Shown here: positions 1,313-19,558 of the stretch, in pieces
Layout: each line of letters begins with the position of its first letter
How positions within the stretch are numbered: the stretch's first letter is position 1
NCBI GenBank assembly: GCA_021737615.1
Contig: JAIPDR010000053.1
Span: 1-20,125, forward strand
From: Desulfohalobiaceae bacterium
Lineage (GTDB): Bacteria; Desulfobacterota; Desulfovibrionia; Desulfovibrionales; Desulfothermaceae
Length of the DNA stretch: 20,125 nucleotides
Direction: 5' to 3'
The notes under the pieces: model-generated
Databases searched by the model: none
What the model saw: the letters and a program-made list of their open reading frames with translations, nothing else
Told to the model about the DNA's origin: nothing
Made by a program: the position numbers and the translations under genes

Positions 1313-1322
1313 GAGAGCCTCC

Positions 1323-1351
1323 TTTTAGTCACTTACAAACTTTAGGTGTAC
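1323..1351. repeat. Solo arm of the AAGTGCCTAAAGT hairpin-element family (in the MscS 5' leader)
   Basis: ttttagtcacttacaaactttaggtgtac closely matches the arm at 7311-7338 (gttcacttacaaacttgagtcac). Confidence 0.7.
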
Positions 1352-1846: not shown

Positions 1847-4800
1847 CTCCCGTCCAGCACCTCCCTCACTTTTCCGGCGATACCTTCCCGCTGAAAGGGT
1901 TTCATGAGTACGGCCCGGATCCCCTTTTCCTTGAGATTCTCCCTGGTAATCCGTTCGCTGAATCCAGTGCAGATGATCACGGGTAGATCCGGCCGGATGG
2001 CCAGCAACCGCAGGGTCAAGTCCTCCCCGGTCATCTGCGGCATGTCCATGTCGGTGATAACCAGATCAAAGGCTTCCGGGTCTGCGGCAAAGACCTCCAG
2101 GGCCTCGAGACTCCCGGTTCGGGCCTCGACCCGATAACCGAGGCCCTCGAGCATCCGCCTGCCGATTCGGACAATGGAGGGTTCGTCGTCCACCAGGAGA
2201 ATACGTTCGGTTCCGGCCTGGAGGGAGGCTTCCGGTTTGGATCGAGGGCCTTCTTCCGCCTCGAGTGCCGGCAGGTAAACCCGAAAGGTCGAGCCCCGGC
2301 CCGGCTCGCTATAGACCGAGATCATGCCTCCGTGCTCCTTGACAATGCCATAGGCCGTGGACAGGCCCAAACCGGTGCCCTTGTGTTTGTCCTTGGTGGT
2401 AAAGAAAGGTTCGAAGATCCGCTGCCTGACCTCCGGCGACATGCCGGGGCCGGTATCGCTGACGGTCAGACGAAGATATTCGCCCGGCTCCATATCGGCA
2501 TCCCGCTTTGTGAATCCTGCATCCAGGTCCGTGACCGAGAGTCCAATCTCAAGAACACCCCCGGTCTCGGCCATGGCCTGGGCCGCGTTGGTGCAGAGAT
2601 TCATCAAGACCTGATGCAGCTGGGAGGGATCACCGGAAACCAAGGGCAGATTCCCCTGAATTTCCCGGCGAATCTCAATGCCGGCCGACAGCGTGGCCTG
2701 GAGCATCTTCACGCTTTCTTTGACCAGGGCCTGGAGTTCCACTGGTTCTTTGTCTCCTTTTTGTTTTCGACTGAAAGCCAAGATCCGCTGCACCAGATCC
2801 GCAGCCCGGTTTCCGGCTTTGAGGATCTCATGCAGATCCCGATGAACCGGGCTGCCCGGTTTGGCCTCCGCAGCGGCCAGCTGGGCCGTGCCAATGATTG
2901 CGGTCAAAATATTGTTGAAATCATGAGCGATACCCCCGGCCAGGGTGCCGATGGCCTCCATTTTCTGGGCCTGCAGAAGTTTGACTTCCAGGTCCTGTTT
3001 CTCCTGTTCAGCCATTTTCCAGTCCGTGATATCACGGGCCAGGCCCTGTACACCCAGGACCTTGCCCAGAGCGTCTTTGCGCAGGGCGGCATTGGTGGAG
3101 ACCCAGACCAGGGAGCCGTCCCGGGCGGGCATTTCCGCCTGAAAATCCTTGAGTTCCCCGGTTTCTTGCAGCGCCGCCAGAAGATCCTCCCGCTGCTCAG
3201 GAATGCGGTAAAATCGAGACATTTGCTCGCCCAGAACCTCTTCCGGGGCATAGCCCAGGATATCCCTAACCGACGGAGAAATAACCGTGATGCGGCCCTT
3301 AGCGTCCGTACGGTAAAAAATGTCCGTGATACTGTAAAAAATATCCTGATATTCCTGCCGGCTTTGCCGCAGAGATCGTTCCATGTCTTTGCGCCGGCTG
3401 ATGTCCTGAACCATGACCTGCACGGCCGGCTGGCCCTCGTAGCTCAGGGCCGTGGCCATGACCTCGACGTCGATGGCCTGCCCGTCCAGGCGGACATAAC
3501 GGTCTTCCACCGGATAGAGACCGGTCTCCCCGGCCAGCATGCGCCGGATTCTGTCCCTTGCCGCGTCCCAATTGTCCGGGTGAATGATCTCCTTGATCGG
3601 CTTGCCCATAAGCTCTTCCGGGGAAGCGGCCCCGATGATCTCCGCCCCGGCCTGATTGCTGAAAACCACCCGTCCCCCGGCATGCACGCAGATCCCCACC
3701 GGCGAGACCTCGATCAGGTTGCGGTAGCGGGCCTCACTCTCCTGGAGCAATTGCTCGGCCTTTTTCAAGCTGCTGATATCGGTGTGGGTGCCGACCACCC
3801 GGACCGCCTTTCCCTGCTCATCATACGAAAAAACCTTGCCCCGGCCCAGGATCCACTTCCAGTGCCCGGATTTCGTCTCCAGCCTGAACTCTTTTTCAAA
3901 AGGCTCGGATTTCTGTGCAATGTGCTCAAGAATGCCTGCCTCGACACCTGCTCTGTCCTCCGGATGCAAAAGACCGGCCCAGGTCTCGTAGCTCTGGGGC
4001 AGCTCATAAGGCGTATAGCCGAGCATGGTGAAATAGCGAGGACTGAAATAGACCTCCCCGGTCCGGACATTCCAGTCCCAGAGGCCGTCATTACTGGCTT
4101 CCAGGGCAAAGGTGAGGCGCTCTTCACTTTTTTTCAGGGCCTCTTCCATGTCAATTTTTTCAGTGACATCCTCGGCCACCTTCACGAAATGAGTGATCGA
4201 GCCGTCTTCAGCAAACATGGGTGAGATGGAGGCCTGCTCCCAATAGAACTTATCATTTTTTTTCCGGTTAGAGAACATCCCCCGCCACTCCCGCCCTGAG
4301 AGCAGGGCCTCAAGCATTTCTTCAGCCTCTTTCTCCGATTGTTCACCCAATTCCATGGCCTTCCGGCCCAGAATCTCTGCGGCGGTATAGCCAGTTATTT
4401 GCTCAAACTTGGGATTCACGTACTCAATGTTGCCTTCACCATCGGTGATCATGACGATGTTCGGGCTTTGTTCGACGGCAGCGGACAATTTTCGAATTTC
4501 TCTCTCCGCCTCCTTGCGCCTGGCCAGCTCCGCCTCCAGGTCCTGCATCTTCTTTTCCAGCTTCTGTACCAAGCGCTGGCTGTAGAGTTTGTAGGTCTCT
4601 TCTTCTGCTCGCTGAGCCGGCTGACCCGGCTCAAGGCCTCGGGCCTCGGCTTCCTCCATCACCGCCTGGACTGCCTTGAGGAAATCGTTCGGCTGCATCG
4701 GCTTGCGCAGGAAGCGGTCCGCCCCCAGCTTAAGGGCAAAAGTCTCGTCCTTGTCGTCCACATACGTGGCCGTGTAAAAGATGAAAGGAATGTTTCGCAG

Positions 4801-5013
4801 GGCCTCGTTGCCCTTGCAGTGCTTGCAGAGCTGGAATCCGTCCATGACCGGCATGAGGATGTCGGCAATGATCAGGTCAAAGGGCTCGGCCTGGAGTTTG
4901 TCCAGGGCTTCCTGGCCGTTTGCAGCCGTGACGGTCTCATACCCCTTGGCCTGGAACATGGTCTGGAGCAGGTAGAGGTTTTCCAGCTTGTCGTCGACGA
5001 TGAGGGCCTTCAT
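1819..5013 (-). CDS. Hybrid sensor histidine kinase: REC - coiled coil - 4 PAS - HisKA - HATPase_c - REC
   Basis: 1064-aa ORF. ATG 5013 follows GGAGAG. The N-terminal receiver has VDD...DLIIADILMP. Four PAS-like blocks follow. The H-box is IAHDFNNILTAI and the HATPase G-boxes are DTGPGM and GTGLGLS. The C-terminal receiver has LLVDDE...DLVITDMDMP...LMKP. Confidence 0.92.
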   Translation of the reverse strand: MKALIVDDKLENLYLLQTMFQAKGYETVTAANGQEALDKLQAEPFDLIIADILMPVMDGFQLCKHCKGNEALRNIPFIFYTATYVDDKDETFALKLGADRFLRKPMQPNDFLKAVQAVMEEAEARGLEPGQPAQRAEEETYKLYSQRLVQKLEKKMQDLEAELARRKEAEREIRKLSAAVEQSPNIVMITDGEGNIEYVNPKFEQITGYTAAEILGRKAMELGEQSEKEAEEMLEALLSGREWRGMFSNRKKNDKFYWEQASISPMFAEDGSITHFVKVAEDVTEKIDMEEALKKSEERLTFALEASNDGLWDWNVRTGEVYFSPRYFTMLGYTPYELPQSYETWAGLLHPEDRAGVEAGILEHIAQKSEPFEKEFRLETKSGHWKWILGRGKVFSYDEQGKAVRVVGTHTDISSLKKAEQLLQESEARYRNLIEVSPVGICVHAGGRVVFSNQAGAEIIGAASPEELMGKPIKEIIHPDNWDAARDRIRRMLAGETGLYPVEDRYVRLDGQAIDVEVMATALSYEGQPAVQVMVQDISRRKDMERSLRQSRQEYQDIFYSITDIFYRTDAKGRITVISPSVRDILGYAPEEVLGEQMSRFYRIPEQREDLLAALQETGELKDFQAEMPARDGSLVWVSTNAALRKDALGKVLGVQGLARDITDWKMAEQEKQDLEVKLLQAQKMEAIGTLAGGIAHDFNNILTAIIGTAQLAAAEAKPGSPVHRDLHEILKAGNRAADLVQRILAFSRKQKGDKEPVELQALVKESVKMLQATLSAGIEIRREIQGNLPLVSGDPSQLHQVLMNLCTNAAQAMAETGGVLEIGLSVTDLDAGFTKRDADMEPGEYLRLTVSDTGPGMSPEVRQRIFEPFFTTKDKHKGTGLGLSTAYGIVKEHGGMISVYSEPGRGSTFRVYLPALEAEEGPRSKPEASLQAGTERILLVDDEPSIVRIGRRMLEGLGYRVEARTGSLEALEVFAADPEAFDLVITDMDMPQMTGEDLTLRLLAIRPDLPVIICTGFSERITRENLKEKGIRAVLMKPFQREGIAGKVREVLDGREEVPQVDK
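4500..5013. repeat. Copy 1 of a ~514-bp direct duplication (REC + coiled-coil module)
   Basis: Collinear with 5825-6338 at a constant offset of 1325 nt. By eye there are only scattered substitutions, and the stretch 4800-4990 versus 6125-6315 is almost identical. Confidence 0.9.
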
Positions 5014-5027
5014 GCGCTCTCCATATC

Positions 5028-5212
5028 ACATTTTGGATTTTGGATTGCGGACCTTCGGATTTTGGCCTATGCCCCGGCTTCCGTCTAGTAGAGCCTACAG
5101 CTCGAAGAGAAGGATTGCGGATAGATTTCAAGAAGAAAATTTTGGTTTTTTCTCATAATAACCAGCTCTTATTCTTCATCTTAACGATCCAAAATCCGCA
5201 ATCCAAAATCCT
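5028..5212. repeat. Spacer bracketed by inverted heptamer arrays, with a conserved core
   Basis: Arrays are 5028-5065 (acattttggattttggattgcggaccttcggattttgg) and 5186-5212 (gatccaaaatccgcaatccaaaatcc). Positions 5035-5051 are the exact reverse complement of 5195-5211 (17 bp). The right array overlaps the HD-GYP stop (5211-5213) and the left array ends 14 nt from the kinase ATG. Core 5127-5187 is homologous to 9601-9662 and, inverted, to 14058-14118. Confidence 0.9.
5155..5184 (-). promoter_or_regulatory. Sigma-70-like hexamer pair inside the conserved core (speculative)
   Basis: The minus strand reads TTAAGA-18 nt-TATTAT. The equivalent positions in the other copies read TTAAGA-18-TATCTG (9600s, minus strand) and GGAAGA-18-CTATAT (14060s, plus strand). 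There is no experimental support and the 18-nt spacer is suboptimal. Confidence 0.2.
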
Positions 5213-6338
5213 AAAAGCTGCCGGCATCGAAAGAAAAGCCTTTGTCCAGATACAGCCTGAGGCAGGCATCCACTGCTCCTGGATCGTACCTGATGCCCCG
5301 GCCCTGCTCGATCTCCTCCAATGCCTGATCCAAATCCAAGGCCGTACGGTAGGGCCGATGAGAGGTCATGGCCTCGACCACGTCGGCCACGGCCATGATA
5401 CGGGCTTCCAACAAGATATCCTTTTCGGACAGGCCCTGGGGATAACCGGAGCCATCCAGTCGCTCGTGATGCTGGAACACGGTCCGGGCGATGGGCCAGG
5501 GGAAGTCGATGTCCTTCAGGATGTCATAACCCGTCTGGGAATGGTTTTGAATCAGGCTGTATTCCATATCTGACAAGCGGACTGATTTGGATAGGATTTC
5601 CGCAGGCACCGCGATCTTTCCAAGATCGTGGATCATGCCTGCCAGAGAGACTCCCTTTTTCTGTTGTTCAGGAAGGGCCAATTCCCCGGCAATGGCCCGG
5701 GCGAGCCTGGCGACGCGGCTCTGGTGCCCGGATGTATAAGGGTCACGCAATTCGACCATTCTGGCGGTGGCCTTGACTGTTCCCTCCAAGGCCTTCCACA
5801 GTTGGGCATGAGCTTTCTGTAGGTTCTCCTCCGCTTGCTTGCGGCCGGCCAGCTCCACTTCCAGATCCTGCATCTTCTGTTCCAGCTTCTGCACCAAGCG
5901 CTGGCTGTAGAGTTTGTAGGTCTCTTCTTCTGCTCGCTGGGCCGGCTGGCCCGGCTCAAGGCCTCGGGCCTCGGCTTCCTCCATCACCGCCTGGGCTGCC
6001 CCGAGAAAGCCGTTCGGCTGCATGGGCTTGCGCAGGAAGCGGTCCGCACCCAGCTTCAAAGCAAAGGCCTCGTCTTTTTCATCCACATACGTGGCCGTGT
6101 AAAAGATGAAAGGAATGTTTCGCAGGGCCTCGTCGCCCTTGCAGTGCTTGCAGAGCTGAAATCCGTCCATGACCGGCATCAGGATGTCGGCAATGATCAG
6201 GTCAAAGGGCTCGGCCTGGAGTTTGTCCAGGGCTTCCTGGCCGTTTGCAGCCGTGACGGTCTCATACCCCTTGGCCTGGAACATGGTCTGGAGCAGGTAG
6301 AGGTTTTCCGGCTTGTCGTCGACGAGGAGGATTTTCAT
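5211..6338 (-). CDS. Response regulator with HD-GYP domain (RpfG-like c-di-GMP phosphodiesterase)
   Basis: ORF 5211..6377. I place the start at ATG 6338 (MKILLVDDKPENLYLL) because it aligns with the MKALIVDDKLENLYLL start of the paralogous module and GAGG lies 8 nt upstream. The longer ORF starts at a GTG inside a repeat. The HD-GYP motifs HDLGK and HHERLDGSGYPQGL are intact. Confidence 0.9.
   Translation of the reverse strand: MKILLVDDKPENLYLLQTMFQAKGYETVTAANGQEALDKLQAEPFDLIIADILMPVMDGFQLCKHCKGDEALRNIPFIFYTATYVDEKDEAFALKLGADRFLRKPMQPNGFLGAAQAVMEEAEARGLEPGQPAQRAEEETYKLYSQRLVQKLEQKMQDLEVELAGRKQAEENLQKAHAQLWKALEGTVKATARMVELRDPYTSGHQSRVARLARAIAGELALPEQQKKGVSLAGMIHDLGKIAVPAEILSKSVRLSDMEYSLIQNHSQTGYDILKDIDFPWPIARTVFQHHERLDGSGYPQGLSEKDILLEARIMAVADVVEAMTSHRPYRTALDLDQALEEIEQGRGIRYDPGAVDACLRLYLDKGFSFDAGSF
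5825..6338. repeat. Copy 2 of the REC + coiled-coil module duplication
   Basis: See 4500-5013. The protein segments are near-identical from LVDDK through QRLVQKLE.KMQDLE.ELA.RK.AE. Confidence 0.9.
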
Positions 6339-6356
6339 AAGAAGTGCCTCAAGTTG
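6339..6356. repeat. Solo arm of the AAGTGCCTAAAGT family immediately upstream of the HD-GYP start
   Basis: aagaagtgcctcaagttg is the exact reverse complement of 1827-1844. Confidence 0.85.
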
Positions 6357-6368
6357 TTTTACATTGTG

Positions 6369-6695
6369 AATCTCCACATTTTGGATTTTGGATTGCGGAA
6401 TTCAGAGTCATGATTTTGAGACTATTTGCTTTTTCTCGCGGTTTTTATCGAAGATACGATTATTGCGATAATTTCATCGTTTTCTTTCATGAGAGCAGGT
6501 ACCGAGTTCGTTTCAAGAATTTTCATCTCCTCTATGATCTCAAGCCAAAACAATGTTTCATCGGCTTCTTCTTCCACTATGGCCAATTTTGAAATAAAAT
6601 CAGCTACAACACCATCCTCCAATCTTCATTCCCCAATCCCTCAGGGGCTTAGTCCAAAGTCCACTTCCCCAATCCAAAATCCGCAATCCAAAATC
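6369..6695. repeat. Inverted heptamer arrays bracketing the four-helix-bundle gene remnant
   Basis: Arrays are 6369-6399 (aatctccacattttggattttggattgcgga) and 6669-6695 (ccaatccaaaatccgcaatccaaaatc). Positions 6384-6399 are the exact reverse complement of 6680-6695 (16 bp). The right array abuts the receiver stop codon (6694-6696). Confidence 0.9.
6422..6622 (-). pseudogene. C-terminal half of a four-helix-bundle protein (23S rRNA intervening-sequence protein family), N-terminal half missing
   Basis: The 66-aa ORF has a TTG as first codon and no ATG. The sequence ...DFISKLAIVEEEADETLFWLEIIEEMKIL...ENDEIIAIIVSSIKTARKSK matches helices 3-4 of the ~120-aa family (..EA.ET.YWLELL..). Upstream sequence in all frames is heptamer repeat, not helices 1-2. 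Confidence 0.6.
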
Positions 6696-7158
6696 ACAGA
6701 TATCGCCTGACCTCGTCCACAAACGATCCGGTATCAATCGGTTTTTCAATATAGCCGTCACAGCCGGCCGCAAAGGTCTTTTCCCGATCGCCCTTCATGG
6801 CATAGGCGGTCATGGCCACTACAGGCATACGCTTCATTTTGGATTTTGGATCTTGGATTTTGGATTCTTCTTTATTCTGTAATCCGGATTCCAAATTCCG
6901 AATTCGCCTCGTGGCCTCATACCCGTCCAGTTTGGGCAACTGCATATCCATCAGAACCAAATCGGGCTTCTTTTGAATGGCCTTTTGCACGCCCTCCTCT
7001 CCATCCCTGGCCTCCAAGACTTCAAAGCCGGCAATTTCCAGTAGAAATCTGGCCAGATACAAGTTTTTCTCCTCATCCTCAACGATCAAGACCTTCTTAT
7101 TCTGCGGCGAAAAATCAGGATTATAGCCCTTGGTGTTCATCATGCTCCATCCTTTCAT
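6694..7158 (-). CDS. Single-domain CheY-like response regulator with an expanded loop
   Basis: 154-aa ORF with ATG at 7158. Alternative starts at 7143/7140 have a better SD (AAGGATGGAG). REC motifs are VLIVEDEE, DLVLMDMQLP, VVAMTAYAMKGD and YIEKP. The loop between RRIRNLE and PVVAMTA is about twice its usual length (see 6835-6905). Confidence 0.88.
   Translation of the reverse strand: MKGWSMMNTKGYNPDFSPQNKKVLIVEDEEKNLYLARFLLEIAGFEVLEARDGEEGVQKAIQKKPDLVLMDMQLPKLDGYEATRRIRNLESGLQNKEESKIQDPKSKMKRMPVVAMTAYAMKGDREKTFAAGCDGYIEKPIDTGSFVDEVRRYL
6835..6905. repeat. Miniature heptamer element inside the receiver CDS, in frame
   Basis: The minus strand reads cggaatttggaatccggatt-acagaataaagaag-aatccaaaatccaagatccaaaatccaaaatg. 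That is an array, an AGAATAA(A)GA core and an inverse array. It translates as NLESGLQNKEESKIQDPKSKMK. Confidence 0.85.
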
Positions 7159-7222
7159 TTTCTTGACTTTATCAACAAATATTAAACAGAATCCCGATTA
7201 TTTTCTCATAATAGTTATTTCC

Positions 7223-7341
7223 GTAAGTGCCTAAAATTAAGCGTTCTGTGTTTCATCGTTTCCCTATTGTCAATGTCTTCCTCTTCCAATTCTGCCAACT
7301 TTAGACACTTTCGTTCACTTACAAACTTGAGTCACTTCGTC
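7223..7341. repeat. ~119-bp hairpin (MITE-like) element, AAGTGCCTAAAGT family
   Basis: The left arm is gtaagtgcctaaaattaagcg (7223-7243). The right arm is ccaactttagacactttcgttcacttacaaacttgagtcacttcgtc (7295-7341). The right arm contains the last six codons (RSDSSL) and the stop codon (7319-7321) of the upstream kinase. Confidence 0.8.
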
Positions 7342-9454
7342 TCCCTCCTTCTCCCAAAGCCTTTTTGATATCCCGCAACAGATCTTCCCGGCTGGATTGC
7401 TGCTTCTGGATGATATTCTCGATCTTGCTGTTGAGCCAGGCCACTTCTTCCTGGGTCAACTTTTTACCGGAAACAATAATAATCGGGATATGCTTGGTGG
7501 GTTCTTCCTGTTTCAACCTGCCGATGACCTCAAAGCCGTCCACCTCCGGCATCATCAAGTCCAGGATGATCAGATCCGGGGCCTGCTCCGAGACCCTGTC
7601 CAGCCCCTCCTGCCCGCCATAGGCCTTTCTGACCCTGTAGCCGTTGATCTCTTCCAGGTATCTGGACAAGAGCTCCACGGCCCGGGCATCATCGTCCACG
7701 ATCAGGATATCGAAGATAGGCCGCATTTTCTTGAGCCGATCCAGCTCCCGGGTCAACCGGTCCTTGTCGATCGGTTTGACCAGGTATTCCACGGCTCCGA
7801 GGGAGAGGCCCAGCTCCCGGTTGTCCAGGATGGAGATGCAGATAACCGGAATGTTTTCGGTTTCAGGATCGTTTTTGAGTTCTTCCAGGATGTCCCAGCC
7901 ATCCCGGCCGGGCATGACGATATCCAGGGTCACGGCGAAGGGTTTGAATTTCCGGGCCAGCTGCAGGGCCTCCAGACCGTTGTAGGCCTGGATGACTTCA
8001 TAACCTTCGGCCTGGAGGTAGGTTGTAAGGATCTCCTGGGCCTCCAGCTCGTCGTCGATGGTCAGGATCAATTTCCTGGTCTGATCCAGGGTTTCAGGAG
8101 AGACAGCAGGCGGCCTGGCAGCCGGACCGGCCTCCTGGACGGGAATGTTGAAAAAAAAGCAGGAGCCCTGGCCATATTCGCTGTTCACCCCAATGGACCC
8201 GCCCATCATCTCCACCATTTTCTTGCAGATGGCCAGGCCCAGTCCTGTGCCCCCGGGTTTTTCCTTAAGCGGACCGTCGATCTGCTTGAATTCGTCAAAG
8301 ACCTCCTCCAGGTGCTCGGGCCGGATGCCCAGACCGGTGTCGGACACGCTGAAGCGGATCAGGGCCGGGCCGGCCGGTTCCACCCTCAGCTCTATCCGGC
8401 CGGAGCTGGTAAATTTTACGGCGTTGGACAGCATGTTGATCAAGACCTGCTTGATGCGGTTCTTGTCATTGTACAAGCCGGAGGGGACACCATCGGCTAC
8501 ATTCACAAAAAAATTTAAACCCTTATCCTGAACCAGGGGAGAGAACATGCCCTGGACCGTGTCAACAAGGCTTTGGACATCGAATTCAGCAGGCTGGATC
8601 TCGATCTTGCCGGCCTCGATCTTGGACAGGTCCAGGACGTCGTTGATCAGGCCCAAGAGGTGCTGGGCGCTGCCGTAGACCATGTTCAGCTGTTTTTTTT
8701 GTTCCGCATTGAGCTCGCCCGCCAATCCCTCGAGGATGATGCCGCTGAAGCCGATTATGGAGTTCAGGGGCGAGCGCAGTTCGTGGCTCATATTGGCCAT
8801 AAACTGGGACTTGAGCCGGCCGGCCTCTTCCAGGCGCTGGTTGGCCTTTTCCAGCTCCTGTTTCTTTTCCTTGAGTTCCGTGTTGACCCGGGTCAACTCT
8901 TCCTGACCGGCCCGCAGTTCATCCAGGGCCTGCAACAGGTCCTGGTTTTGCTGCTGGACTTCTGCAAACGCGGACCTGGGTCCCCCGGCTGCCAGCCCGG
9001 AGGTGAGGCGCTGGATATCTGCAGGGCCCCAAGGTTCCCGGCCCTCGGGAAGGGCCTTTCCCATGAGCACGCGGGTGCCCTGGCCCGGCCTGGAATCGAT
9101 CTCAAAATGGTCCATGAGCCGCCTGGCCCCGGCAAGGCCGATGCCCAGCCCGCTTTTGGAGGCATAGCCTTGCTTTAAGACGGCCTCCAGATCGGCAATC
9201 CCGGGGCCTTGGTCCTCGAAAGACATGCACAGCATCTGCGGCGAGGCCTCCAGGTCCAACTGGAAATCCAGCTTGCCGTCCCCGGCGTACTGGTAAACAT
9301 TGCGGGCCAGCTCGGACACAGCCGTGGTGATCCGGGTCTGATCCTGGGAGGTAAAGCCGATCAATCCGGCGATCTCCCTGGAGCGCTGCCTGGACAGAAT
9401 CACGTCGTCCTCGAAACGGATCTGAATGCTGAGGATCTTTGTTGGCATCTTCAT
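7319..9454 (-). CDS. Hybrid histidine kinase with N-terminal RsbT-like GHKL domain: RsbT-like - coiled coil - HisKA - HATPase_c - REC - REC
   Basis: ORF 7319..9562. Candidate ATG starts are 9454, 9448, or the repeat-encoded in-frame ATG 9493. The N-terminal domain reads QTRITTAVSELARNVYQYAGDGKL...DQGPGI...SGLGIGLAGARRLMDHFEIDSRPGQGTRV, which resembles RsbT as I recall it from B. subtilis. It is followed by MSHELRSPLNSI (H-box), the HATPase N/G boxes, and two receivers (LDIVMPGRDG and LDLMMPEVDG). Confidence 0.88.
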   Translation of the reverse strand: MKMPTKILSIQIRFEDDVILSRQRSREIAGLIGFTSQDQTRITTAVSELARNVYQYAGDGKLDFQLDLEASPQMLCMSFEDQGPGIADLEAVLKQGYASKSGLGIGLAGARRLMDHFEIDSRPGQGTRVLMGKALPEGREPWGPADIQRLTSGLAAGGPRSAFAEVQQQNQDLLQALDELRAGQEELTRVNTELKEKKQELEKANQRLEEAGRLKSQFMANMSHELRSPLNSIIGFSGIILEGLAGELNAEQKKQLNMVYGSAQHLLGLINDVLDLSKIEAGKIEIQPAEFDVQSLVDTVQGMFSPLVQDKGLNFFVNVADGVPSGLYNDKNRIKQVLINMLSNAVKFTSSGRIELRVEPAGPALIRFSVSDTGLGIRPEHLEEVFDEFKQIDGPLKEKPGGTGLGLAICKKMVEMMGGSIGVNSEYGQGSCFFFNIPVQEAGPAARPPAVSPETLDQTRKLILTIDDELEAQEILTTYLQAEGYEVIQAYNGLEALQLARKFKPFAVTLDIVMPGRDGWDILEELKNDPETENIPVICISILDNRELGLSLGAVEYLVKPIDKDRLTRELDRLKKMRPIFDILIVDDDARAVELLSRYLEEINGYRVRKAYGGQEGLDRVSEQAPDLIILDLMMPEVDGFEVIGRLKQEEPTKHIPIIIVSGKKLTQEEVAWLNSKIENIIQKQQSSREDLLRDIKKALGEGGRRSDSSL
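7361..8850. repeat. Copy 1 of a ~1.5-kb duplicated transmitter module (HisKA-HATPase-REC-REC)
   Basis: Collinear with 15983-17480 at an offset of 8622-8631 nt with a few small indels. Long identical nucleotide runs occur, for example ctcgatcttgccggcctcgatcttggacaggtccaggacgtc. The protein segments are roughly 85% identical by eye. Confidence 0.9.
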
Positions 9455-9691
9455 ATTGCGGATCTTCCGATTTTTGATTTTGGATCTCCACATTTTGGAT
9501 TTTGGATTGCGGAATGCTGATTGCGGATTTTCCGATTTTTCCCGCTTTATGTCGCTTCCCAACTTTAGTCACTTCTTCGCTCTGCAATATTCACTATAGG
9601 CTTTAAGAAAAAGTTTTTGGATTTATGCCAGATAACCAACTCTTATTCTTTGTCTTAACAATCGAAAATCCAAAATCCAAAATCTAAAATT
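9455..9691. repeat. Spacer bracketed by inverted heptamer arrays, with a conserved core
   Basis: Arrays are 9455-9541 and 9659-9691. Positions 9492-9508 (attttggattttggatt) are the exact reverse complement of 9667-9683 (17 bp). Core 9601-9662 is homologous to 5127-5187. The spacer also carries a solo AAGTG-family arm at 9558-9580 (cccaactttagtcacttcttcgc). Confidence 0.9.
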
Positions 9692-9700
9692 CTATAGTCA

Positions 9701-10750
9701 CTATTCAATCACCCGCCCCACCACCACGGTCAGATCATCGTCCCGTTGGTAGTCGCGGTACAGAACGCCGGCGATCAGCGCAGGGTGCCTGGTCACGAGT
9801 CCGGGGTAAGGGTCCAGACTCCAGCCTGTCTTCAAGCCATCGGAATGCATGACCAGCAAGGGAGGGGAGCCGCCTTCTCTCTCCGGCCAGGGAGTGACGT
9901 AGACCCGGCTGAGCTCCTGGCGGCGCCCCACAATTCCATACCGGGAGACCAGGTGCCGGTTCTGGCTTCCGGAGAGGAGGCAGGCGGAGATGTTTCCCAA
10001 CCCGACAAAACGGACTTCCCGCTTCTGCCTGTCCATTTCCGCAACTGCAGCGGCCGCTCCCCGGGTGCCCCGCAGCCCTGCCTGCATACGCTGCATCATG
10101 TCCTGCAGGTCCAGGCCCGGGTTGGCCTGAAAAATTCGTCTGAGCTCCAGAGAGGCCTCGGCCGCTCCAGGACCATGCCCCAGTCCGTCCGCCACCAAAA
10201 CGGCCCAGCCGTTGGGGCGAGGCTGGAGGGCCCAGTTGTCCCCGCAGACGCTCTGGCCCGGCTTGGGCAGGCAGATCCCGGCCACCTCGAACCCGGGGGC
10301 TGAAGGCTTGGCCAGACCGCCTTTCGGCCGGAGGCAGGCCATGAGCACGGTCCCCTGGTCCGGGAGGGAATGGATATCAAACTGGGAACTCAAACGGCGC
10401 ATGGCCCCGAGACCGGTTCCCGGGCTGCCTGTGCTGGAAAAGCCGTCCTGGAGACATTGTCCCACATTCTGCATCCCCGGTCCCTTGTCAATAGCCACGA
10501 TCCGCAGGCCGGACATTTGGCCCAGCTGGACCGTATCCAGGAGCAGCTCCCCGGACCGGGCGTGTTTGAGCAGGTTGGTCCCGGCCTCGGTGACCACGAT
10601 GGCTGTTTTGCCGGTTTGATCCTCACTGAAGCCCAGCTTGCGGGCCAGGTTCACGGCCTTCCGCCGCACTTCGGCGATCCGGCTTTGCTCGGTAACGGAA
10701 AAGGCCAGGCTGCAGCCCGGGCTTTCCTGAGGTATTGAATATGGTCTCAT
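9701..10750 (-). CDS. Fusion of GHKL Ser-kinase-like domain (HATPase_c_2, RsbW/RsbT-like) and PP2C/SpoIIE phosphatase (RsbX/RsbU role)
   Basis: ORF 9701..10804. I place the start at ATG 10750 (MRPYSIPQE), which forms an ATGA overlap with the rsbT stop (10747-10749). Kinase-like motifs are VTEAGTNLLKHA, DKGPGM and GSPGTGLGAMRR. PP2C motifs are VCGDNW, VADGLGHGPGAA, MHSDGL and DDDLTVVV. Confidence 0.85.
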   Translation of the reverse strand: MRPYSIPQESPGCSLAFSVTEQSRIAEVRRKAVNLARKLGFSEDQTGKTAIVVTEAGTNLLKHARSGELLLDTVQLGQMSGLRIVAIDKGPGMQNVGQCLQDGFSSTGSPGTGLGAMRRLSSQFDIHSLPDQGTVLMACLRPKGGLAKPSAPGFEVAGICLPKPGQSVCGDNWALQPRPNGWAVLVADGLGHGPGAAEASLELRRIFQANPGLDLQDMMQRMQAGLRGTRGAAAAVAEMDRQKREVRFVGLGNISACLLSGSQNRHLVSRYGIVGRRQELSRVYVTPWPEREGGSPPLLVMHSDGLKTGWSLDPYPGLVTRHPALIAGVLYRDYQRDDDLTVVVGRVIE

Positions 10751-11157
10751 TTCCACATGATCATGCATACCCGGGTCCCTTGTCCTGCTTGGGATTCTAT
10801 CCAAAATTCATCCACCAGCCTTTTGCTGCCGGGCAGGCCCAGACCCAGGCCCTTGTTCGTGCTGTACCCTTTTTGCATGGCCAGCTGCACATCCTTCAGA
10901 CCCGGCCCTGTATCCGTAAATATCAGGCGCAGACCGAAACGGACTGCATTGTCCACGGCCTCCAGGAGCGCCTTCCCCTCCCGGCCGTATCGAGCCGTAT
11001 TGCGGGCGATCTCACTGGCCGCCGTGACCAGCTTGGTCTGCAGGATCAACGAAAACCCGAACTCCTTTGCCCATTCGCGGACGACCCGCCTGACCCGGGC
11101 CACATCCTGATCAGTGCGGACCGGCAAGGTTTCATGCTTCCGTACGGTCAGGGACAC
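10747..11157 (-). CDS. rsbT: RsbT-like serine kinase / switch protein
   Basis: This lies in ORF 10747..11313. The likely start is GTG 11157 (GGAGAAGG just upstream), overlapping the rsbS 3' end by 26 nt. The ~136-aa sequence includes ...AASEIARNTARYG...DTGPGL...KGLGLGLPGSKRLVDEFWIESQAGQGTRV, a single GHKL domain of RsbT size. The start codon is uncertain. Confidence 0.8.
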   Translation of the reverse strand: MSLTVRKHETLPVRTDQDVARVRRVVREWAKEFGFSLILQTKLVTAASEIARNTARYGREGKALLEAVDNAVRFGLRLIFTDTGPGLKDVQLAMQKGYSTNKGLGLGLPGSKRLVDEFWIESQAGQGTRVCMIMWK

Positions 11158-11533
11158 GGCCCTTCTCCCGGGAAGACGATCCCAGCCTCTTGGCAAGCAG
11201 GGCCATGCCTTTGTCCACATCCAGGGCGGTCCGGATGCCTTTGATGGCCAGGCCCAGCTCGACAATGGTGATGGCCACCTCCGGCTGCATACCCACCAGG
11301 ACCGTTTCCGCATCCAGAAGGCCGGCCGTGGCCGCCATGTCTCCCAGGGTGCGGCCCATGAAGGAATCGATCATCTGCAGGGCTGAGATGTCGATCAATA
11401 CCCCCCTGGCCCCGGTTTTTTGAATCTGCTCGGCCAGGTCATCCCGCAGGGCCAGGGCCAAGCGGTCGTGCAAGTCCACTTGAATGATCACCAAAAGAAA
11501 ATTCCCCCACTTGAGGATCGGAATCCGTTCCAT
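11132..11533 (-). CDS. rsbS: RsbS-like single-STAS stressosome scaffold protein
   Basis: This lies in ORF 11132..11626. The start is ATG 11533 (MERIPILKWGNFLLVIIQ), since upstream codons are heptamer repeat. It is a STAS fold with DISALQMIDSFMGRTL, where the Ser sits at the expected phospho-acceptor position. Confidence 0.85.
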   Translation of the reverse strand: MERIPILKWGNFLLVIIQVDLHDRLALALRDDLAEQIQKTGARGVLIDISALQMIDSFMGRTLGDMAATAGLLDAETVLVGMQPEVAITIVELGLAIKGIRTALDVDKGMALLAKRLGSSSREKGRVPDRTEA

Positions 11534-11579
11534 GCTAGCGCCTTTCAGAAGAGGTTTTGATTGACTATTGATTATTTCA

Positions 11580-11650
11580 GCAATCGACAATCCAACATGT
11601 GAAGATCCAAAATCTCCAATCCGCAATCCAAAATCCGCAATCCAAAATCC
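11580..11650. repeat. Unpaired 71-bp heptamer array filling most of the rsbR-rsbS spacer
   Basis: gcaatcgacaatccaacatgtgaagatccaaaatctccaatccgcaatccaaaatccgcaatccaaaatcc starts directly after the rsbR stop codon (11651-11653). I found no complementary array before the rsbS start. Confidence 0.9.
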
Positions 11651-12520
11651 CTAGAATCTGCCCGGCTCCCCCTTGACCACATAACCGCTGCGTTCCAAGG
11701 CCAGGGCAAGCGCATCCGCCAGGGTGGCCTTGGTGGGAATTCCCCCCAGCTCCAGGCCCATGTCCACCATGGACTGGGCGATCATCGGCCGGATCCCGCT
11801 GATGATGCACTCGGCGCCCATGAGACCGGCCGCGGATACGGTCTTGATCAGATGCTGGGCCACCAGGGTGTCCACGGTGGGCACGCCGGTGATATCCATA
11901 ATGGCGATGGTGGATTTGGTTTCCACAATCATCTGCAAAAGGTTTTCCATGACCGTCTGGGTGCGGGCGCTGTCCAGGGTCCCGATCAGGGGGACCGCCA
12001 GGACCCCGTGCCAGAGCTGGACCACAGGCGTGGACAGCTCCATGATCTCCTCCTGCTGGCGCCGGATGACCTGTTCCCGGTGCTGAATAGAAGCTTCGGT
12101 GGTATACAGGCCCAGCTTGTCCAGCAGCCGGGTCGCGGTCCAGATTTCCTGCACCAGTTCCTCTGGATTCTCGGCCAGAAGGCTCTGGAGGAGGTACATC
12201 AGGGGCTGTTTAAAGGAAAAGATACAGGTGGCCACCTCCGAGGGGGTAAAGCCTTTTTCCCCCCGGGTGCGGGAGATCCTGGACAGCATGTCCCTGACTT
12301 CTTTCCAGGCTTCAGCGCTTGTATCAACGACTCCGCCCGCCTGCAGGGCCGAGCGGAAAAGACTGATAAATTCAGCAGCTTCTTCCCGCAGTGCGGTTTC
12401 ATCAATCAAATCCGGCCGCAAGACGCCGGAACTCAATTGTTCCCGGATCCAGTCCTTCAACAGCTCCTGTTCATACTTTTCAAGTATCTCCGGCAGGCGC
12501 GTTGTCTCTTGATCATTCAT
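11651..12520 (-). CDS. rsbR: RsbR-like stressosome sensor (N-terminal helical sensory domain + C-terminal STAS)
   Basis: 289-aa ORF. ATG 12520 has AGGAGG 7 nt upstream. The C-terminal STAS reads STPVVQLWHGVLAVPLIGTLDSARTQ...IMDITGVPTVDTLVAQHL, with Thr at the RsbR phospho-site position. The N-terminal ~150 aa resemble RsbR-type sensory domains (ILEKYEQELLKDWIREQL). Confidence 0.88.
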   Translation of the reverse strand: MNDQETTRLPEILEKYEQELLKDWIREQLSSGVLRPDLIDETALREEAAEFISLFRSALQAGGVVDTSAEAWKEVRDMLSRISRTRGEKGFTPSEVATCIFSFKQPLMYLLQSLLAENPEELVQEIWTATRLLDKLGLYTTEASIQHREQVIRRQQEEIMELSTPVVQLWHGVLAVPLIGTLDSARTQTVMENLLQMIVETKSTIAIMDITGVPTVDTLVAQHLIKTVSAAGLMGAECIISGIRPMIAQSMVDMGLELGGIPTKATLADALALALERSGYVVKGEPGRF

Positions 12521-12551
12521 CCTGAAACCTCCTGTTTTGAATTGAATATGG

Positions 12552-12592
12552 GGAAGAAGTGCCTAAAGTTTGAAAAAGTACCTGAAGGAATT
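12552..12592. repeat. Arm of the AAGTGCCTAAAGT family in the rsbR leader
   Basis: ggaagaagtgcctaaagtttgaaaaagtacctgaaggaatt contains two sub-repeats (aagtgcctaaagt and aagtacctgaagg). It may pair with the arm at 12846-12880 across a 250-bp insert. Confidence 0.75.
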
Positions 12593-12845
12593 GGCTATCG
12601 AATAAATCCACAAGTCACTCTCTCCGATCTGTAGGCTCTACGAGTAGGAAGCCGTCCATTAAGCCTTACTCTCTGACCCGTAGACTCCCGGGTCTACCCT
12701 CCAGCCTGTAAACCCTACGGGCTGTAAGCGGAACCGGGAGCCCTGTCTAAGCCAAGATTTTCTATATATTCCATCTCCGTTGCATACATTTTGATCTTTT
12801 GTCAAACTCAGGTCGTCCTCCGTCGATATCTTGAAAATCGAAAAT

Positions 12846-12880
12846 CCTATAGTTCACTTATCGACTTGAGGCGCTTCTTC
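12846..12880. repeat. Arm of the AAGTGCCTAAAGT family overlapping the 3' end of the SBP/4-Cys sensor gene
   Basis: Positions 12854-12880 (tcacttatcgacttgaggcgcttcttc) differ at only 3 of 27 positions from 1819-1845. The arm encodes EEAPQVDK plus the stop codon. Confidence 0.85.
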
Positions 12881-14020
12881 AAATTCAGAGTAGAGCAGGG
12901 CCTCGCAATCCGGGCAGATGCCGTGGGAAAATGTAGCTTCTGAGTGTTTCTTGATGAAGAATTCGATCTGGTTCCAGTAGCCCTGGTCGTCCCGGATCTT
13001 TTTGCAGTTGGCGCAGATTGGGATGAGCCCTTTCAAGGTCTTGACTTGGACCAGGGCTTCCTGGAGCCGGTTCCGCTCATTGAGAAGCGCAGTCTCAGCC
13101 GCAGTTTTCCGGGCGATTTCCTCCTCCAGGGTCGTATTACGTTCCTTCAATTCTCTGGTTTTGGATCTGACCTGCTGTTTCAAGACCAGGCTGAAGAGAG
13201 CAAACAGACAGCCCAGGCCGACTGCCGCGGCCAATCCGAAAAGCAAAGCCCTGGGCACCTCCCGTTCCACCCGCATGTCGAACCAGTGCTCCAGGGTCTG
13301 GTTGTAGAAGGAATTCCGGTCCTGCTTCAGGACGGAAAGCTGTTGATCAATAGCGGCCGCCAGGTCCTGGTTATGCCCTTTGGGAAAGGCGAATCTGAGT
13401 TCCACCGGGGCCAGGACGATGGGCGTCCGCCTGACCTCGTATTTGTCCTCCTCGGCCAGGCCGTAGAGCCTGCTGATGATCCCGGCCTCCGCCGCTCCCC
13501 GGTCCAGGGCTTGAAAGACTTCTTTGTAACCGCTGCAGAGCACATACTCGCAGGCAATGTTGAACTGCTTGAAGCGTTCAAAGGAGATACCCCCTTGCAT
13601 GACCGCGACTCTTTTGCCCTGAAGCTGCTCGACGTTTTCAATGTCCAATCCTGCGCGGCTGTAAATCCTAGCCCAGTTGGAGAGCACGGTCTCCCGGTTG
13701 AAGTCATACATTTCGGCCCGGTCCCGGCTATAGGCCACATCCACCATGATATCCAGCTTGCCGGCCCGCAGCCGGTCCAGGCACTGCTGCCAGGTCCCGG
13801 GCACATAGTCCAGGTCCCAGCCTTCCTGCCTCGCGATATCCCCCAGAAGATCCACCCAGATTCCGGCGGGCCTGCCGGCCTCATCCAGGTAGACCTTGGG
13901 CTTGTTCTGATAGATGCCCACCCGGACCGTCTCGGCAGCAGACCCTGAAGCCGGGAGCCAGAACAGGAGCAACAGGGCGATGAGCAGCCGTATGAAATTT
14001 TGGATTTTGGATCTCCACAT
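12854..14020 (-). CDS. Membrane sensor: signal peptide - periplasmic SBP_bac_3 (Venus-flytrap) domain - TM - coiled coil - short 4-Cys C-terminal domain
   Basis: ORF 12854..14101 has a TTG as first codon. The likely start is ATG 14020 (MWRSKIQNFIRLLIALLLLFWLPASGSAA, signal-peptide-like). The SBP domain begins VRVGIYQNKPKVYLDEAG...DIMVDVAYSRDRAEMYDF. The TM segment is ALLFGLAAAVGLGCLFALFSLVL. The C-terminus is ICANCKKIRDDQGYWNQIEFFIKKHSEATFSHGICPDCEALLY. Confidence 0.85.
   Translation of the reverse strand: MWRSKIQNFIRLLIALLLLFWLPASGSAAETVRVGIYQNKPKVYLDEAGRPAGIWVDLLGDIARQEGWDLDYVPGTWQQCLDRLRAGKLDIMVDVAYSRDRAEMYDFNRETVLSNWARIYSRAGLDIENVEQLQGKRVAVMQGGISFERFKQFNIACEYVLCSGYKEVFQALDRGAAEAGIISRLYGLAEEDKYEVRRTPIVLAPVELRFAFPKGHNQDLAAAIDQQLSVLKQDRNSFYNQTLEHWFDMRVEREVPRALLFGLAAAVGLGCLFALFSLVLKQQVRSKTRELKERNTTLEEEIARKTAAETALLNERNRLQEALVQVKTLKGLIPICANCKKIRDDQGYWNQIEFFIKKHSEATFSHGICPDCEALLYSEFEEAPQVDK
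13090..13965. repeat. Copy 1 of a ~0.88-kb duplicated sensor module (SBP domain + TM + start of coiled coil)
   Basis: Collinear with 17542-18417 at an offset of 4452 nt. Identical runs of 40-60 nt occur, for example gccaggccgtagagcctgctgatgatcccggcctccgccgctcccc. The protein segments are roughly 85-90% identical by eye. Confidence 0.9.
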
Positions 14021-14247
14021 TTTGGATTTTGGATCTCCACATTTTGGATTTTGGATTAGGAAGACACAGAATAAGAACTGGTCTATATGGAATAAATCCA
14101 ATACCTTTTTCCTAAAGCATCTATCCCTCAGGGCCGGCCTCCAGCTCCGCTACGGGCCGGAGAGTAAAGTATACGCCCTGGAGAAAAGCCAAAATCGACC
14201 CTCTTTCTTTTTCCGCAATCCAAAATCCGCATTCCAAAATCCAAAAT
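13996..14247. repeat. Spacer bracketed by inverted heptamer arrays, with the conserved core in opposite orientation
   Basis: The left array (13996-14057) contains the 22-bp unit attttggattttggatctccac in 2.8 tandem copies (13997-14018, 14019-14040, 14041-14057). The right array is 14212-14247. Positions 14041-14055 are the exact reverse complement of 14233-14247 (15 bp). Core 14058-14118 is homologous to the reverse complement of 9601-9662. Confidence 0.9.
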
Positions 14248-14250
14248 TCT

Positions 14251-15783
14251 TCAAACGCTTTCCCACTCAAACCCCACGATATTCCGTTTCTCACTGGAAA
14301 ACTCCACCCCGATCAAATAGACCTCCTGCCCGGCGAATTTTTCCGCGTACCCCCTGGCCTTGATCTGTTCCAGGGCCCCGGCTTGATCCGTGAGCTCCAC
14401 CACCTTGAACTCGATCAGATAGATCCGGTCCTCAAAACGCAGGGTCAGGTCCATCCTGCCCTTGTTCGTCGGCTCTTCAGGATGGACGTCCAGCCCAAGG
14501 GCTGCAAAATAACAGTAGACAATGGAGGCGTAGTAGCCTTCATACCCGGCCAATTGGTTCTTGCGATACCAGTCATGGGGGATGGAGGCGAAAAAGGCCT
14601 GAAACAGCTCACGGAGCTTATCCAGGTCATTGACTGAGAGGGCATCCAGCAGATCGGACTGATTTCTGGTCTTGGCCAGGCGGGCCTGGGATAGTCCGTT
14701 CAAAATGGAGTTGGTCAGACTGGCCTTGACCTCCATGTTGGGGTAACCAAGGCGATACCGGCTAAAGGCCCCGGTCTGGGAAAAGCCCCTGATAGTCAAG
14801 TAGCCGGTCTGGAAAAGAAGGGCCTCCGCAACAATTGAATCGATATCAAAACTGCCCACGATTTCCTCTCCCACGGTCAGGTCTTCCACTTCCGGGATGC
14901 TGTACCGGCCCTCCTGCAGCAGTTTGACCAGAAAACCCGGGGTTCCGGTTTCAAACCAATAATTCCGAAATTCCTTAGAATCCAAATACAGCAGAATATC
15001 AAAAGGGTTATAGACCTCGTCTCCCAGCCAGTTGTACCCATTGTACCACTGTTGGACCTGATCCTTATCCACCCCGTCCAAACGATCCACAAAGACCGTC
15101 TCCAATTCCTGCTGGGTATATCCACAAATCGCTGAAAAGCGCTTATCCAGGGTGATGTCCTTGAGGTTGTTCAAACCGCTGAACAAGGAAACCTTGCTGA
15201 ATTTGGAGACCCCGGTGATGAATACGAATTCTAGATAGGGATCGGCATCCTTGATCACTGAGTAGTAGTTCTTGAGCTCCTCTCTGATTTCCACAGCTGT
15301 TGCCGGTTTTTCAATATTGTCCAGGATGGGCTTGTCATATTCGTCCACCAGGACCACCACTTTTTGGCCGAATTGCCTGCACAAGGTGTGGATCAGTTCG
15401 GCGAAGCGGCTTCTCAAATCATCATAGCTGAAAGAAATTTTGTATTCTTTCGCATGCTCGGATAATATATAGGTAAAAGATTGCTGAAGCTCCTCAATAG
15501 TTCTCAGCACTCCGGAGCCAAAGCTGATATGGACCACCGGATTCGTCCGGTCCCAATCCCAGTGATCAAAAAGATACTGTCCTTGAAACAAGTCCTTTTT
15601 GCCTTGATAGGCGGCCTTGATGGTGCTCAGGAACAAACTCTTGCCGAAGCGCCTAGGCCGGGAGAGGAAGTAATAATCCCCGGCCTGGGCCAGCTCGCTG
15701 ATAAACCGTGTTTTATCGACATAGTAACAGTTGCTTTCAATCAGCTTTTCAAAGGTCTGAATGCCGATGGGCAGCTTTTTCAT
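14251..15783 (-). CDS. AAA-ATPase-like protein with C-terminal PD-(D/E)XK nuclease domain (AAA-ATPase_like + PDDEXK_9 architecture)
   Basis: 510-aa ORF. ATG 15783 has AGGAG 9 nt upstream. The N-terminus MKKLPIGIQTFEKLIESNCYYVDKTRFI...FLSRPRRFGKSL is the family hallmark. The C-terminus GRMDLTLRFEDRIYLIEFKV carries the D...ExK nuclease motif. Confidence 0.88.
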   Translation of the reverse strand: MKKLPIGIQTFEKLIESNCYYVDKTRFISELAQAGDYYFLSRPRRFGKSLFLSTIKAAYQGKKDLFQGQYLFDHWDWDRTNPVVHISFGSGVLRTIEELQQSFTYILSEHAKEYKISFSYDDLRSRFAELIHTLCRQFGQKVVVLVDEYDKPILDNIEKPATAVEIREELKNYYSVIKDADPYLEFVFITGVSKFSKVSLFSGLNNLKDITLDKRFSAICGYTQQELETVFVDRLDGVDKDQVQQWYNGYNWLGDEVYNPFDILLYLDSKEFRNYWFETGTPGFLVKLLQEGRYSIPEVEDLTVGEEIVGSFDIDSIVAEALLFQTGYLTIRGFSQTGAFSRYRLGYPNMEVKASLTNSILNGLSQARLAKTRNQSDLLDALSVNDLDKLRELFQAFFASIPHDWYRKNQLAGYEGYYASIVYCYFAALGLDVHPEEPTNKGRMDLTLRFEDRIYLIEFKVVELTDQAGALEQIKARGYAEKFAGQEVYLIGVEFSSEKRNIVGFEWESV

Positions 15784-15847: not shown

Positions 15848-15967
15848 GGAAGTGCCTAAAGTCGGGGAACACCTAAAGTATTCGGAATTATAAGAGCGGT
15901 CGCTGCAGTCTCCGTTCCGTCAACTTTAGTCGCTTTAGTTCACTTCTCAACTTTAGCTCACTTCTTC
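15848..15967. repeat. ~120-bp hairpin (MITE-like) element, AAGTGCCTAAAGT family
   Basis: The left arm is ggaagtgcctaaagtcggggaacacctaaagtattcgg (15848-15885). The right arm is ccgtcaactttagtcgctttagttcacttctcaactttagctcacttcttc (15917-15967). The terminal ~15 nt are imperfect inverted repeats. The right arm encodes EEVS plus the stop codon (15953-15955) of the upstream kinase. Confidence 0.85.
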
Positions 15968-19201: not shown

Positions 19202-19412
19202 CACCTTTTCCTTTCATCTCCTGTTTCATGGGTACCTCTTATCTTCTATACCAGAAGTTGGCATAAATTGCGCTTCTTATCTGCCGTCGATGACAGCTCT
19301 CCTGGGTCATGTGAGACAGGAGATGTATTTTGGGCCAACTTCTGGTATCTATTTGATAAATTGAAATATAAAAAAACTCAAAAGTCAAGAAACCACCCCC
19401 GTCCCTCCTCCT

Positions 19413-19558
19413 CTCCAATCCAAAATCCGCAATCCCTCCGGGGCATAGGCCCCTACGGGCCGGAGGCCAAAATCCAATATTCAATTCCTCCTCCCCATTC
19501 CCCATTCCCCATACCCCATTCCGCATTCCAAAATCCAAAATGTGAAGATCCAAAATCA
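19413..19558. repeat. Composite heptamer arrays with variant units downstream of the GGDEF gene
   Basis: 19413-19439 reads ctccaatccaaaatccgcaatccctcc. 19494-19558 reads cccattccccattccccataccccattccgcattccaaaatccaaaatgtgaagatccaaaatcac, about 9 units grading from CCCCATT to CCAAAAT. The second array overlaps the GGDEF stop codon (19556-19558). Confidence 0.9.

Follow-up and report, generated by a model that had tools for sequence, protein, structure and literature searches.

The DNA analysed here (the window) is a 20,125-nucleotide stretch of a Desulfohalobiaceae metagenome-assembled genome (MAG) from an uncultured bacterium of the sulfate-reducer type, and three of its spacers, each bracketed by arrays of a seven-nucleotide repeat, share a conserved core that is very probably the interior of a 98-bp non-autonomous DNA transposon, i.e. 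a MITE (miniature inverted-repeat transposable element), that inserts at TA and duplicates it. The window is contig C70 of the source MAG (G000; 3.84 Mb, 280 contigs, 55% G+C, 90% complete), which we compared with three sister-species genomes (G001, G002 and G003), making four genomes of the genus. Its genes lie nearly all on the minus strand and, as a Pfam scan of the open reading frames (ORFs) shows, encode signalling proteins: hybrid histidine kinases, receiver proteins, an RsbR/STAS-GHKL-SpoIIE module, an SBP sensor, a GGDEF protein and an AAA-ATPase_like/PDDEXK_9 protein. The sensor-kinase cluster contains recently duplicated gene modules. No transposase domain was found among the ORFs scanned against Pfam, as an earlier note on this stretch had stated.

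The cores lie at 5127-5187, 9601-9662 and 14058-14118, the first two in one orientation and the third inverted, with global pairwise identities of 74.6% (1 vs 2), 78.1% (2 vs 3) and 67.7% (1 vs 3); the earlier note had described them in the same places and orientations as about three-quarters identical, and a family profile (nhmmer) recovers all three as near-full-length matches, far beyond chance. Copy 2 (profile match 9595-9696, unit 9597-9694, plus strand, E 1e-30) is identical to the family consensus at 101 of 102 aligned positions (99%). With its ends taken from the flank statistics of 42 copies and from an empty site, both described below, the sequence reads TA at 9595-9596 and again at 9695-9696 as the two halves of a target-site duplication; as C9594 precedes the left TA and G9697 follows the right one, the inferred target is C-TA-G. 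The copy begins 4 nt (9697-9700) past the stop codon (9701-9703) of a SpoIIE/PP2C-type gene, as that gene is read, and lies 141 nt upstream of the start of a hybrid kinase gene. Copy 1 (5121-5219, plus strand, E 2e-14) matches model positions 3-100, nearly the full length, and copy 3 (14019-14119, minus strand, E 9e-16) matches positions 6-97; the heptamer end of copy 1 overlaps the last codons and the TAG stop of an HD-GYP response-regulator gene, and that of copy 3 runs on into an array at 13997-14057. Both are about 75% identical to the consensus. The canonical copy 2 thus inserted recently, whereas copies 1 and 3 go back to old insertions that have since decayed. A probable truncated second copy lies in spacer 3 at 14193-14250 (plus strand, opposite to copy 3; model positions 41-100, E 0.0025), where it probably supplies the outer array of that spacer, beside the stop of the AAA-ATPase-like gene.

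The same unit is dispersed over the whole genome. A BLAST search with core 2 returned about 22 further matches of 90-100% identity on as many contigs, and a profile search of G000 recovered 23 canonical copies (E <= 6e-24) as well as three decayed full-length ones, namely window copies 3 and 1 and a copy on contig C158. These 26 full-length copies are spread over 24 contigs and are all intergenic; they adjoin unrelated genes in both orientations, after stop codons and before starts, and no shared flanks were seen, as a segmental duplication of the canonical copies would need. Besides the fragment at 14193-14250, G000 holds a right-half copy in C207 and a deletion derivative in C187. Two further places in the window had been proposed by the earlier note, a truncated AGAATAA(A)GA core inside the receiver gene (6836-6905) and a partial match, attatgagaaaa, at 7195-7215; compared with the non-array core, neither scores better than shuffled sequence (p 0.35-0.85). 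All four genomes of the genus give at least 21 matches each: G001 and G002 have copies that hardly differ from the consensus, and those in G003 are 78-94% identical to it. Among 37 other relatives searched nothing beyond the heptamer tail was found in any, and an exact 30-mer of the core occurs only in two Desulfohalobiaceae MAGs (JAIPER01 'Tobar18m-G6' and CAZUMF01).

Three side observations concern derivatives and neighbours of the family. The C187 derivative (33537-33590) is 54 bp long and consists of the left end, a short linker and two heptamers, which shows that the MITE family generates mini-versions too. A solitary 22-nt copy of the left end (TATAGCCTTTAAGAAAAAGTTT) at C141:507-528 forms the last codons and the stop of a gene (…KYSL*) whose C-terminus (…LGIHRTHLYKKLQKYSL*) resembles the Fis-type helix-turn-helix found in activators of the NtrC family. 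Either this fragment is what is left of an old insertion, now truncated, that reshaped the end of the gene, or it hints at where the repeat came from. Finally, the orthologues of window 1092-1327 and 1889-2290 lie about 4.4 kb apart in G002:C332 as against 0.56 kb here, and MITE copies lie near both ends of the extra segment (434-543 and 4800-4875), which may represent a MITE-flanked insertion or deletion.

The boundaries of the unit are sharp. In an ungapped alignment of all copies on the core, similarity starts abruptly at TATAG[G/C] on the left and stops as abruptly at CTATA(G) on the right, where a fixed tail, CGAAAATCCAAAATCCAAAATCTAAAATT, precedes the boundary; beyond these limits the flanks are unrelated among copies. 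The flank limits and the empty site set the mobile unit at 98 bp plus a duplicated TA, with ends TAG...CTA and without coding capacity of its own, not at the 200-250 bp of the whole spacer that had been proposed for it. The consensus with its flanking TA reads TA-TAG[G/C]CTTTAAGAAAAAGTTTTTGGATTTATGCCAGATAACCAGCTCTTATTCTTTGTCTTAACAATCGAAAATCCAAAATCCAAAATCTAAAATTCTA-TA. Its left and right ends form an imperfect inverted repeat of about 30 bp (TATAG-NN-TTT-N-AGA-N5-TTTTGGATTT; 26 of 41 positions match), and the unit folds modestly as a terminal hairpin (z about -1.9; 10-11 of 200 shuffles fold equally well). Rfam gave no relevant match in the window at E <= 1.

The two ends differ in build, and the comparison with a related element makes clear how. 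A search of metagenome contigs with the left end brought up a sibling MITE of about 128 bp in LGVD/LGVE/LGVF and Ga0209636 contigs (L044-L049), whose ends both read TATAGGCTTTAAGAAAAAG(TT/AA)TTTTGGC (25 of 27 positions identical) and share their terminal 26 nt with the left end of the window family; it has a different interior, occupies several different insertion sites and is absent from G000. The left end of the window family is a normal terminal inverted repeat. Against the sibling, the right end has lost the 14 nt GCTTTAAGAAAAAG, while TATAG at the very end and the (A)ATTTTGG motif further in have been kept; the inner ATTTTGG motif is present there four times in tandem, which makes the heptamer tail a homologue of the terminal repeat's inner part. 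In the earlier note, heptamer arrays formed both termini of the unit: this holds for the right end, with its four units, and fails for the left, where all 23 canonical copies lack an array, the second array of each window spacer lying outside the unit, in a region where the canonical copies are unrelated.

Flank statistics from 42 non-redundant copies, drawn from G000 and two of its sister species' genomes, show TATAG kept in 38-39 of the 42, C as the preceding base in 24, and G after CTATA in about half; the conserved unit is therefore TATAG...CTATA, set in a C...G context. We then joined the flanks of 14 G000 copies and compared them with the three sister genomes. The filled site on C277 reads CTCCAC-TA-[TAGAATTT...AAAGGCTA]-TA-GACTG (the first letters of the element are alternatively given as TAGAATTTT), and the orthologous site on G001:C118 is empty and reads CTCCAC-TA-GACTG with a single TA, in flanks that are 85% identical; the alignment across the junction is exact and gives an insert of 98 bp, with duplication of the TA of a CTAG. 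The C276 site is empty in both G002 and G003, with more diverged flanks, and other sites, such as those on C263, C184 and C90, are also filled in their G001 orthologues. The reverse search, with sister-genome copies against G000, yielded several sites that are empty in G000, with boundaries blurred by intergenic divergence. Since some sites are shared and others are empty elsewhere, the insertions are a mix of shared and lineage-specific events. An apparent 7-bp direct repeat, TCACTAT, around copy 2 was rejected, as it is absent at other copies. With many copies, defined ends, a TA duplication and a sister-species empty site all found in the genome and its relatives, the core stands as the dispersed, insertable, MITE-like unit that the earlier note had suspected, and not as gene-specific regulatory DNA.

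TA duplication at CTAG-like sites is a hallmark of IS630/Tc1-mariner transposition. The MITE would insert at TA, preferably inside C-TA-G, and duplicate the TA as those transposases do, and it is most likely moved in trans by an IS630/Tc1-mariner-type enzyme encoded elsewhere; the IS630-derived class is assigned because of this insertion signature, not because of a demonstrated partner. An IS630-family element of the order, on G094:C5, likewise starts TA-TAG and is TA-flanked. Taken together, these features describe a MITE family that is previously undescribed, well delimited and of conventional type: an ordinary kind of mobile DNA.

Several observations weigh against this interpretation. No cognate transposase carrying the same termini was found in G000, in the genus or in 121 genomes of the order. 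G000 (90% complete, 280 contigs) gives no match to DDE_3 or DDE_Tnp_1, and insertion sequences are often unassembled in MAGs. The sole IS630-family element that a DDE_3 search finds in the genus (G001:C96) is TA-flanked, begins TAGTGCTCCAATTTAGG and has the same end architecture, and it shares just the terminal TATAG with the MITE, so that its repeat is not the cognate one; nor does the MITE repeat occur at any of about 30 IS630 loci in the 121 genomes. The metagenome contigs searched with the left-end pattern likewise yielded no transposase, and 19 matches of this pattern in viral contigs were set aside as chance hits inside unrelated, AT-rich phage sequence. The right end is 14 nt short of the inverted repeat, which makes recognition of that end by a transposase hard to account for. 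Boundaries are base-precise at one empty site, those of the others being blurred by intergenic divergence. Finally, for 20 of the 26 G000 copies it is the heptamer end that lies closer to a stop or start codon (median 16 nt, as against 119 nt for the opposite end, p 0.009), a bias that random insertion at TA does not explain; it was not reproduced in the sister genomes (8 of 17 copies). The polarity of the arrays relative to genes was also considered as a sign of selection and rejected, since it follows geometrically from the inverted-repeat structure.

The heptamer arrays form a second layer at this locus. The MITE tail provides one of the two bracketing arrays of each spacer (5187-5215, 9660-9690 and part of 13997-14057); the other arrays (5025-5065, 9455-9540 and 14212-14247) lie 55-90 bp beyond the MITE left end. 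Those of spacers 1 and 2, both on the plus strand and outside the 98-bp unit, carry window-specific variant units: CCGCAAT at 5025-5065, and GTGGAGAT together with CCGCAAT at 9455-9540, units that are absent from the young copy 2. Spacer 2 had a single array before copy 2 arrived. G000 as a whole contains 523 rows of period-7 tandem repeats with many different units (AACCGTG 86, ACTCCTC 40, AAAATCC 34, and others); its AAAATCC-like arrays number 56, including 13 within the 20 kb of the window and some 23 that form the tails of MITE copies. Two variant units, AATCCGCAATCC (seven of eight genomic matches) and CCAAAATGTGGAGAT (four of four), are nearly confined to the window, where solo arrays have them in common with the tails of both old copies, 1 and 3, and where they are absent from copy 2, a distribution that points to local spread or homogenisation of arrays within a duplicating gene cluster.

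Elsewhere in the genome, inverted heptamer arrays bracket genes of the PF05635 family (23S rRNA intervening-sequence protein, a four-helix bundle), of which G000 has seven matches. The unit differs by locus, being ACTCCTC at C88:14819-15351 and AACAATT at C275:5511-6065, and further such loci lie on C205, C142, C110 and C68. The window holds a remnant of the kind, the C-terminal half of a PF05635 gene at 6455-6604 on the minus strand, between AAAATCC-type inverted arrays at 6378-6394 and 6671-6695; it is not part of the MITE. The outer arrays of the spacers are locus DNA and belong to this genome-wide system of inverted heptamer arms. The PF05635 cassettes and the MITE have the same kind of heptamer array in common, which in the MITE makes up the right end; the MITE differs in having its array at one end, a TA duplication, TAG...CTA ends and no shared core. 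None of 32 PF05635 matches in the genus lies near MITE ends or core, except for the adjacency in the window itself, so that no extant cassette can have given rise to the MITE by gutting; with an array at the right end only and no shared core, that origin is rejected for the canonical family. The tail may have been captured from the arm of a PF05635 cassette, or it may have grown from the repeat motif of the MITE itself.

Other repeats of the genome were seen along the way. A second dispersed family (C2:26019-26223, C9, C73, C87, C102 and many more; about 90 BLAST matches, E <= 1e-5) has inverted AACCGTG/GGTTCAC heptamer arrays at both ends of a core of about 60 bp (…GGTTCACGGTTTGAAGAGGAAGAAGTTAAGAAAAAAACTGGATAGGTCAGAGGGCTATTTTCTTTTTCTTAACCGTGAACGGTGAACC…), and in many cases a GC hairpin, GGGTTGCGGGCGAAGCCCGC, comes next. 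A palindrome of 31 bp, rich in GC and reading CTCCGGGGC(G/A)TAGGCCCCTACGGGCCGGAGG, occurs at window 19436-19466, at C259:4768 (inside a MITE tail) and at C148:1516, each time within a heptamer array and directly after ...TCC; the same insert of about 31 bp is present in several MITE copies of G001 and G002 at model position ~78, and it looks like a tiny nested mobile hairpin that favours heptamer arrays. Window segments 19247-19371, 12902-13100, 2909-3010 and 15885-15969 have counterparts of 76-92% identity on many sister-genome contigs, some at contig ends, and are other dispersed repeat families; the AAA-ATPase_like/PDDEXK_9 gene (14251-15783) is itself multi-copy, with several sister-genome paralogues at 69-88% DNA identity.

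A different role for the element is one that we regard as unlikely: the right end of the MITE would be a heptamer arm, whether taken from an AAAATCC-armed PF05635 cassette or developed out of the inner motif of its own repeat, each transposition would seed an array by a gene boundary, and pairs of arrays would act as RNase III-type stems, as recombination points, or as both. MITE tails and cassette arms would then form inverted pairs bracketing nearly every cistron of the signalling cluster, as processing stems like those of rRNA intervening sequences and/or as sites of the recombination by which modules of the paralogous sensor genes, which are seen to be shuffled, were exchanged. Were this so, the MITE would be a vehicle that spreads a functional RNA or DNA motif, and more than a selfish insert.

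That the whole array-bracketed spacer of 200-250 bp is mobile, with arrays as both termini (for example as a gutted, heptamer-armed PF05635 cassette) and the 98 bp as its best-conserved part, is improbable, even though several features invite the idea: PF05635 genes in G000 are bracketed by inverted arrays, and an AAAATCC-armed remnant lies in the window itself (6378-6695); in transcripts of the three spacers, tail and outer array pair up to close long stems (z -3.3, -2.0 and -4.9); the arrays of the old copies 1 and 3 share window-specific units with solo arrays; spacer 3 has a second, partial copy in opposite orientation; and the AACCGTG-type family does carry arrays at both ends. However, none of the 23 canonical copies has a left array, their left flanks having nothing in common outward from the base that precedes TATAG; what the empty site lacks is precisely the 98-bp unit with one TA; spacer 2 was single-arrayed before copy 2 inserted; and no PF05635 locus in the four genomes has MITE ends or core. 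For the canonical family this explanation is largely refuted.

A regulatory role for the core was suggested by a σ70-like TTAAGA-N18-TATTAT, which the earlier note had placed in it. Our promoter scan finds this pair only in copy 1, where it points at the downstream kinase gene: in copy 2 and the consensus the second hexamer is TATCTG, and copy 3 has no promoter-like site, so that the pair is no family feature. The scan also flags TTAACA-N17-CAAAAT and TCGAAA-N17-TAAAAT, both directed out of the element by way of the heptamer tail; as matches to the consensus only, they would make the array end of the MITE a possible outward promoter. It is very hard to believe, nonetheless, that the core is a locus-specific promoter or operator module for the downstream sensor kinases, duplicated along with paralogous genes. 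The orientation of the copy 1 hexamers and the recently duplicated modules of the cluster would agree with such a module, but about 23 near-identical copies lie beside unrelated genes on other contigs, in both orientations, after stops and before starts; neither the consensus nor copy 2 or 3 has the pair of hexamers; and there are a TA duplication and an empty site. Because the shared core consists of MITE insertions, a special regulatory explanation of it is unnecessary. A palindromic element of REP/REPIN-like or IS200/IS605 type, mobilised by a Y1 (HUH) transposase, for which no duplication is expected, is equally remote: the unit is a hairpin-forming intergenic repeat, G000 has a weak Y1_Tnp match (24 bits) and a tiny GC-rich palindrome is nested in some copies, but TA stands at both ends and singly in the empty site, the ends are terminal inverted repeats rather than subterminal hairpins, and insertion occurs in both orientations.

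As an ordinary selfish insert, the MITE would affect neighbouring genes at several places. The TAG stop of the HD-GYP regulator gene (5211-5213) lies inside the tail motif TTTTAG of copy 1, and the copy on C54 supplies a stop likewise; the tail array of copy 3 contains the ATG (14018-14020) at which the SBP sensor gene most plausibly begins, giving MWRSKIQNF followed by a signal-peptide core. The donated stop of copy 1, the start of copy 3, the RNA stems and the possible promoter would all be side effects of a selfish element rather than its purpose.

The three bracketed spacers represent three separate insertions, one recent and two ancient, in the spacers of a sensor-kinase cluster, and two layers that had appeared as one are now separated: one is the MITE, the other the heptamer arrays that occur throughout the genome in connection with PF05635 cassettes. 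The element explains some contig breaks and odd gene ends, with stop and start codons drawn from repeat DNA, and its consensus can be used for masking in the annotation of hypersaline Desulfohalobiaceae MAGs.

Among known systems, RUP and the Correia elements have a TA target, terminal inverted repeats and a length of about 107 bp (PMC2229807). RUP (repeat unit of pneumococcus) of S. pneumoniae, which is related to IS630-Spn1 and is the standard example of a bacterial MITE with this insertion mode, is similar to the window MITE in being about 100 bp long, non-coding, intergenic and multi-copy with high copy-to-copy identity, in having terminal inverted repeats and in inserting at TA, and its mobility is put down to an IS630-family transposase that would act on it in trans (PMC2229807). 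Unlike the MITE described here, for which none was found, RUP has a known cognate insertion sequence with matching repeats. The window MITE in turn differs from RUP in its host, an uncultured Desulfohalobiaceae genus, and in its asymmetric right end, where the repeat is partly deleted and a 7-nt motif stands in tandem. The ends of Correia elements also read TATAG; their repeats are 24 bp long, symmetric and without a heptamer array, in contrast to those of the window family. The Correia/NEMIS elements of Neisseria are likewise small (~107-155 bp), have terminal inverted repeats with 5'-TA-3' termini and a TA duplication, and often lie near genes; the stem-loops formed by their transcripts have been proposed as targets of RNase III, and fusions of the elements to ORFs occur (PMC2229807). 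A bacterial MITE with a tandem repeat is described for Porphyromonas gingivalis; there the minisatellite lies inside the element, whereas in the window MITE the 7-nt unit forms or replaces one of the terminal repeats (PMC4596501). For the question of end recognition by IS630-type transposases, such asymmetry, with a tandem heptamer in place of part of one repeat, is a mild curiosity.

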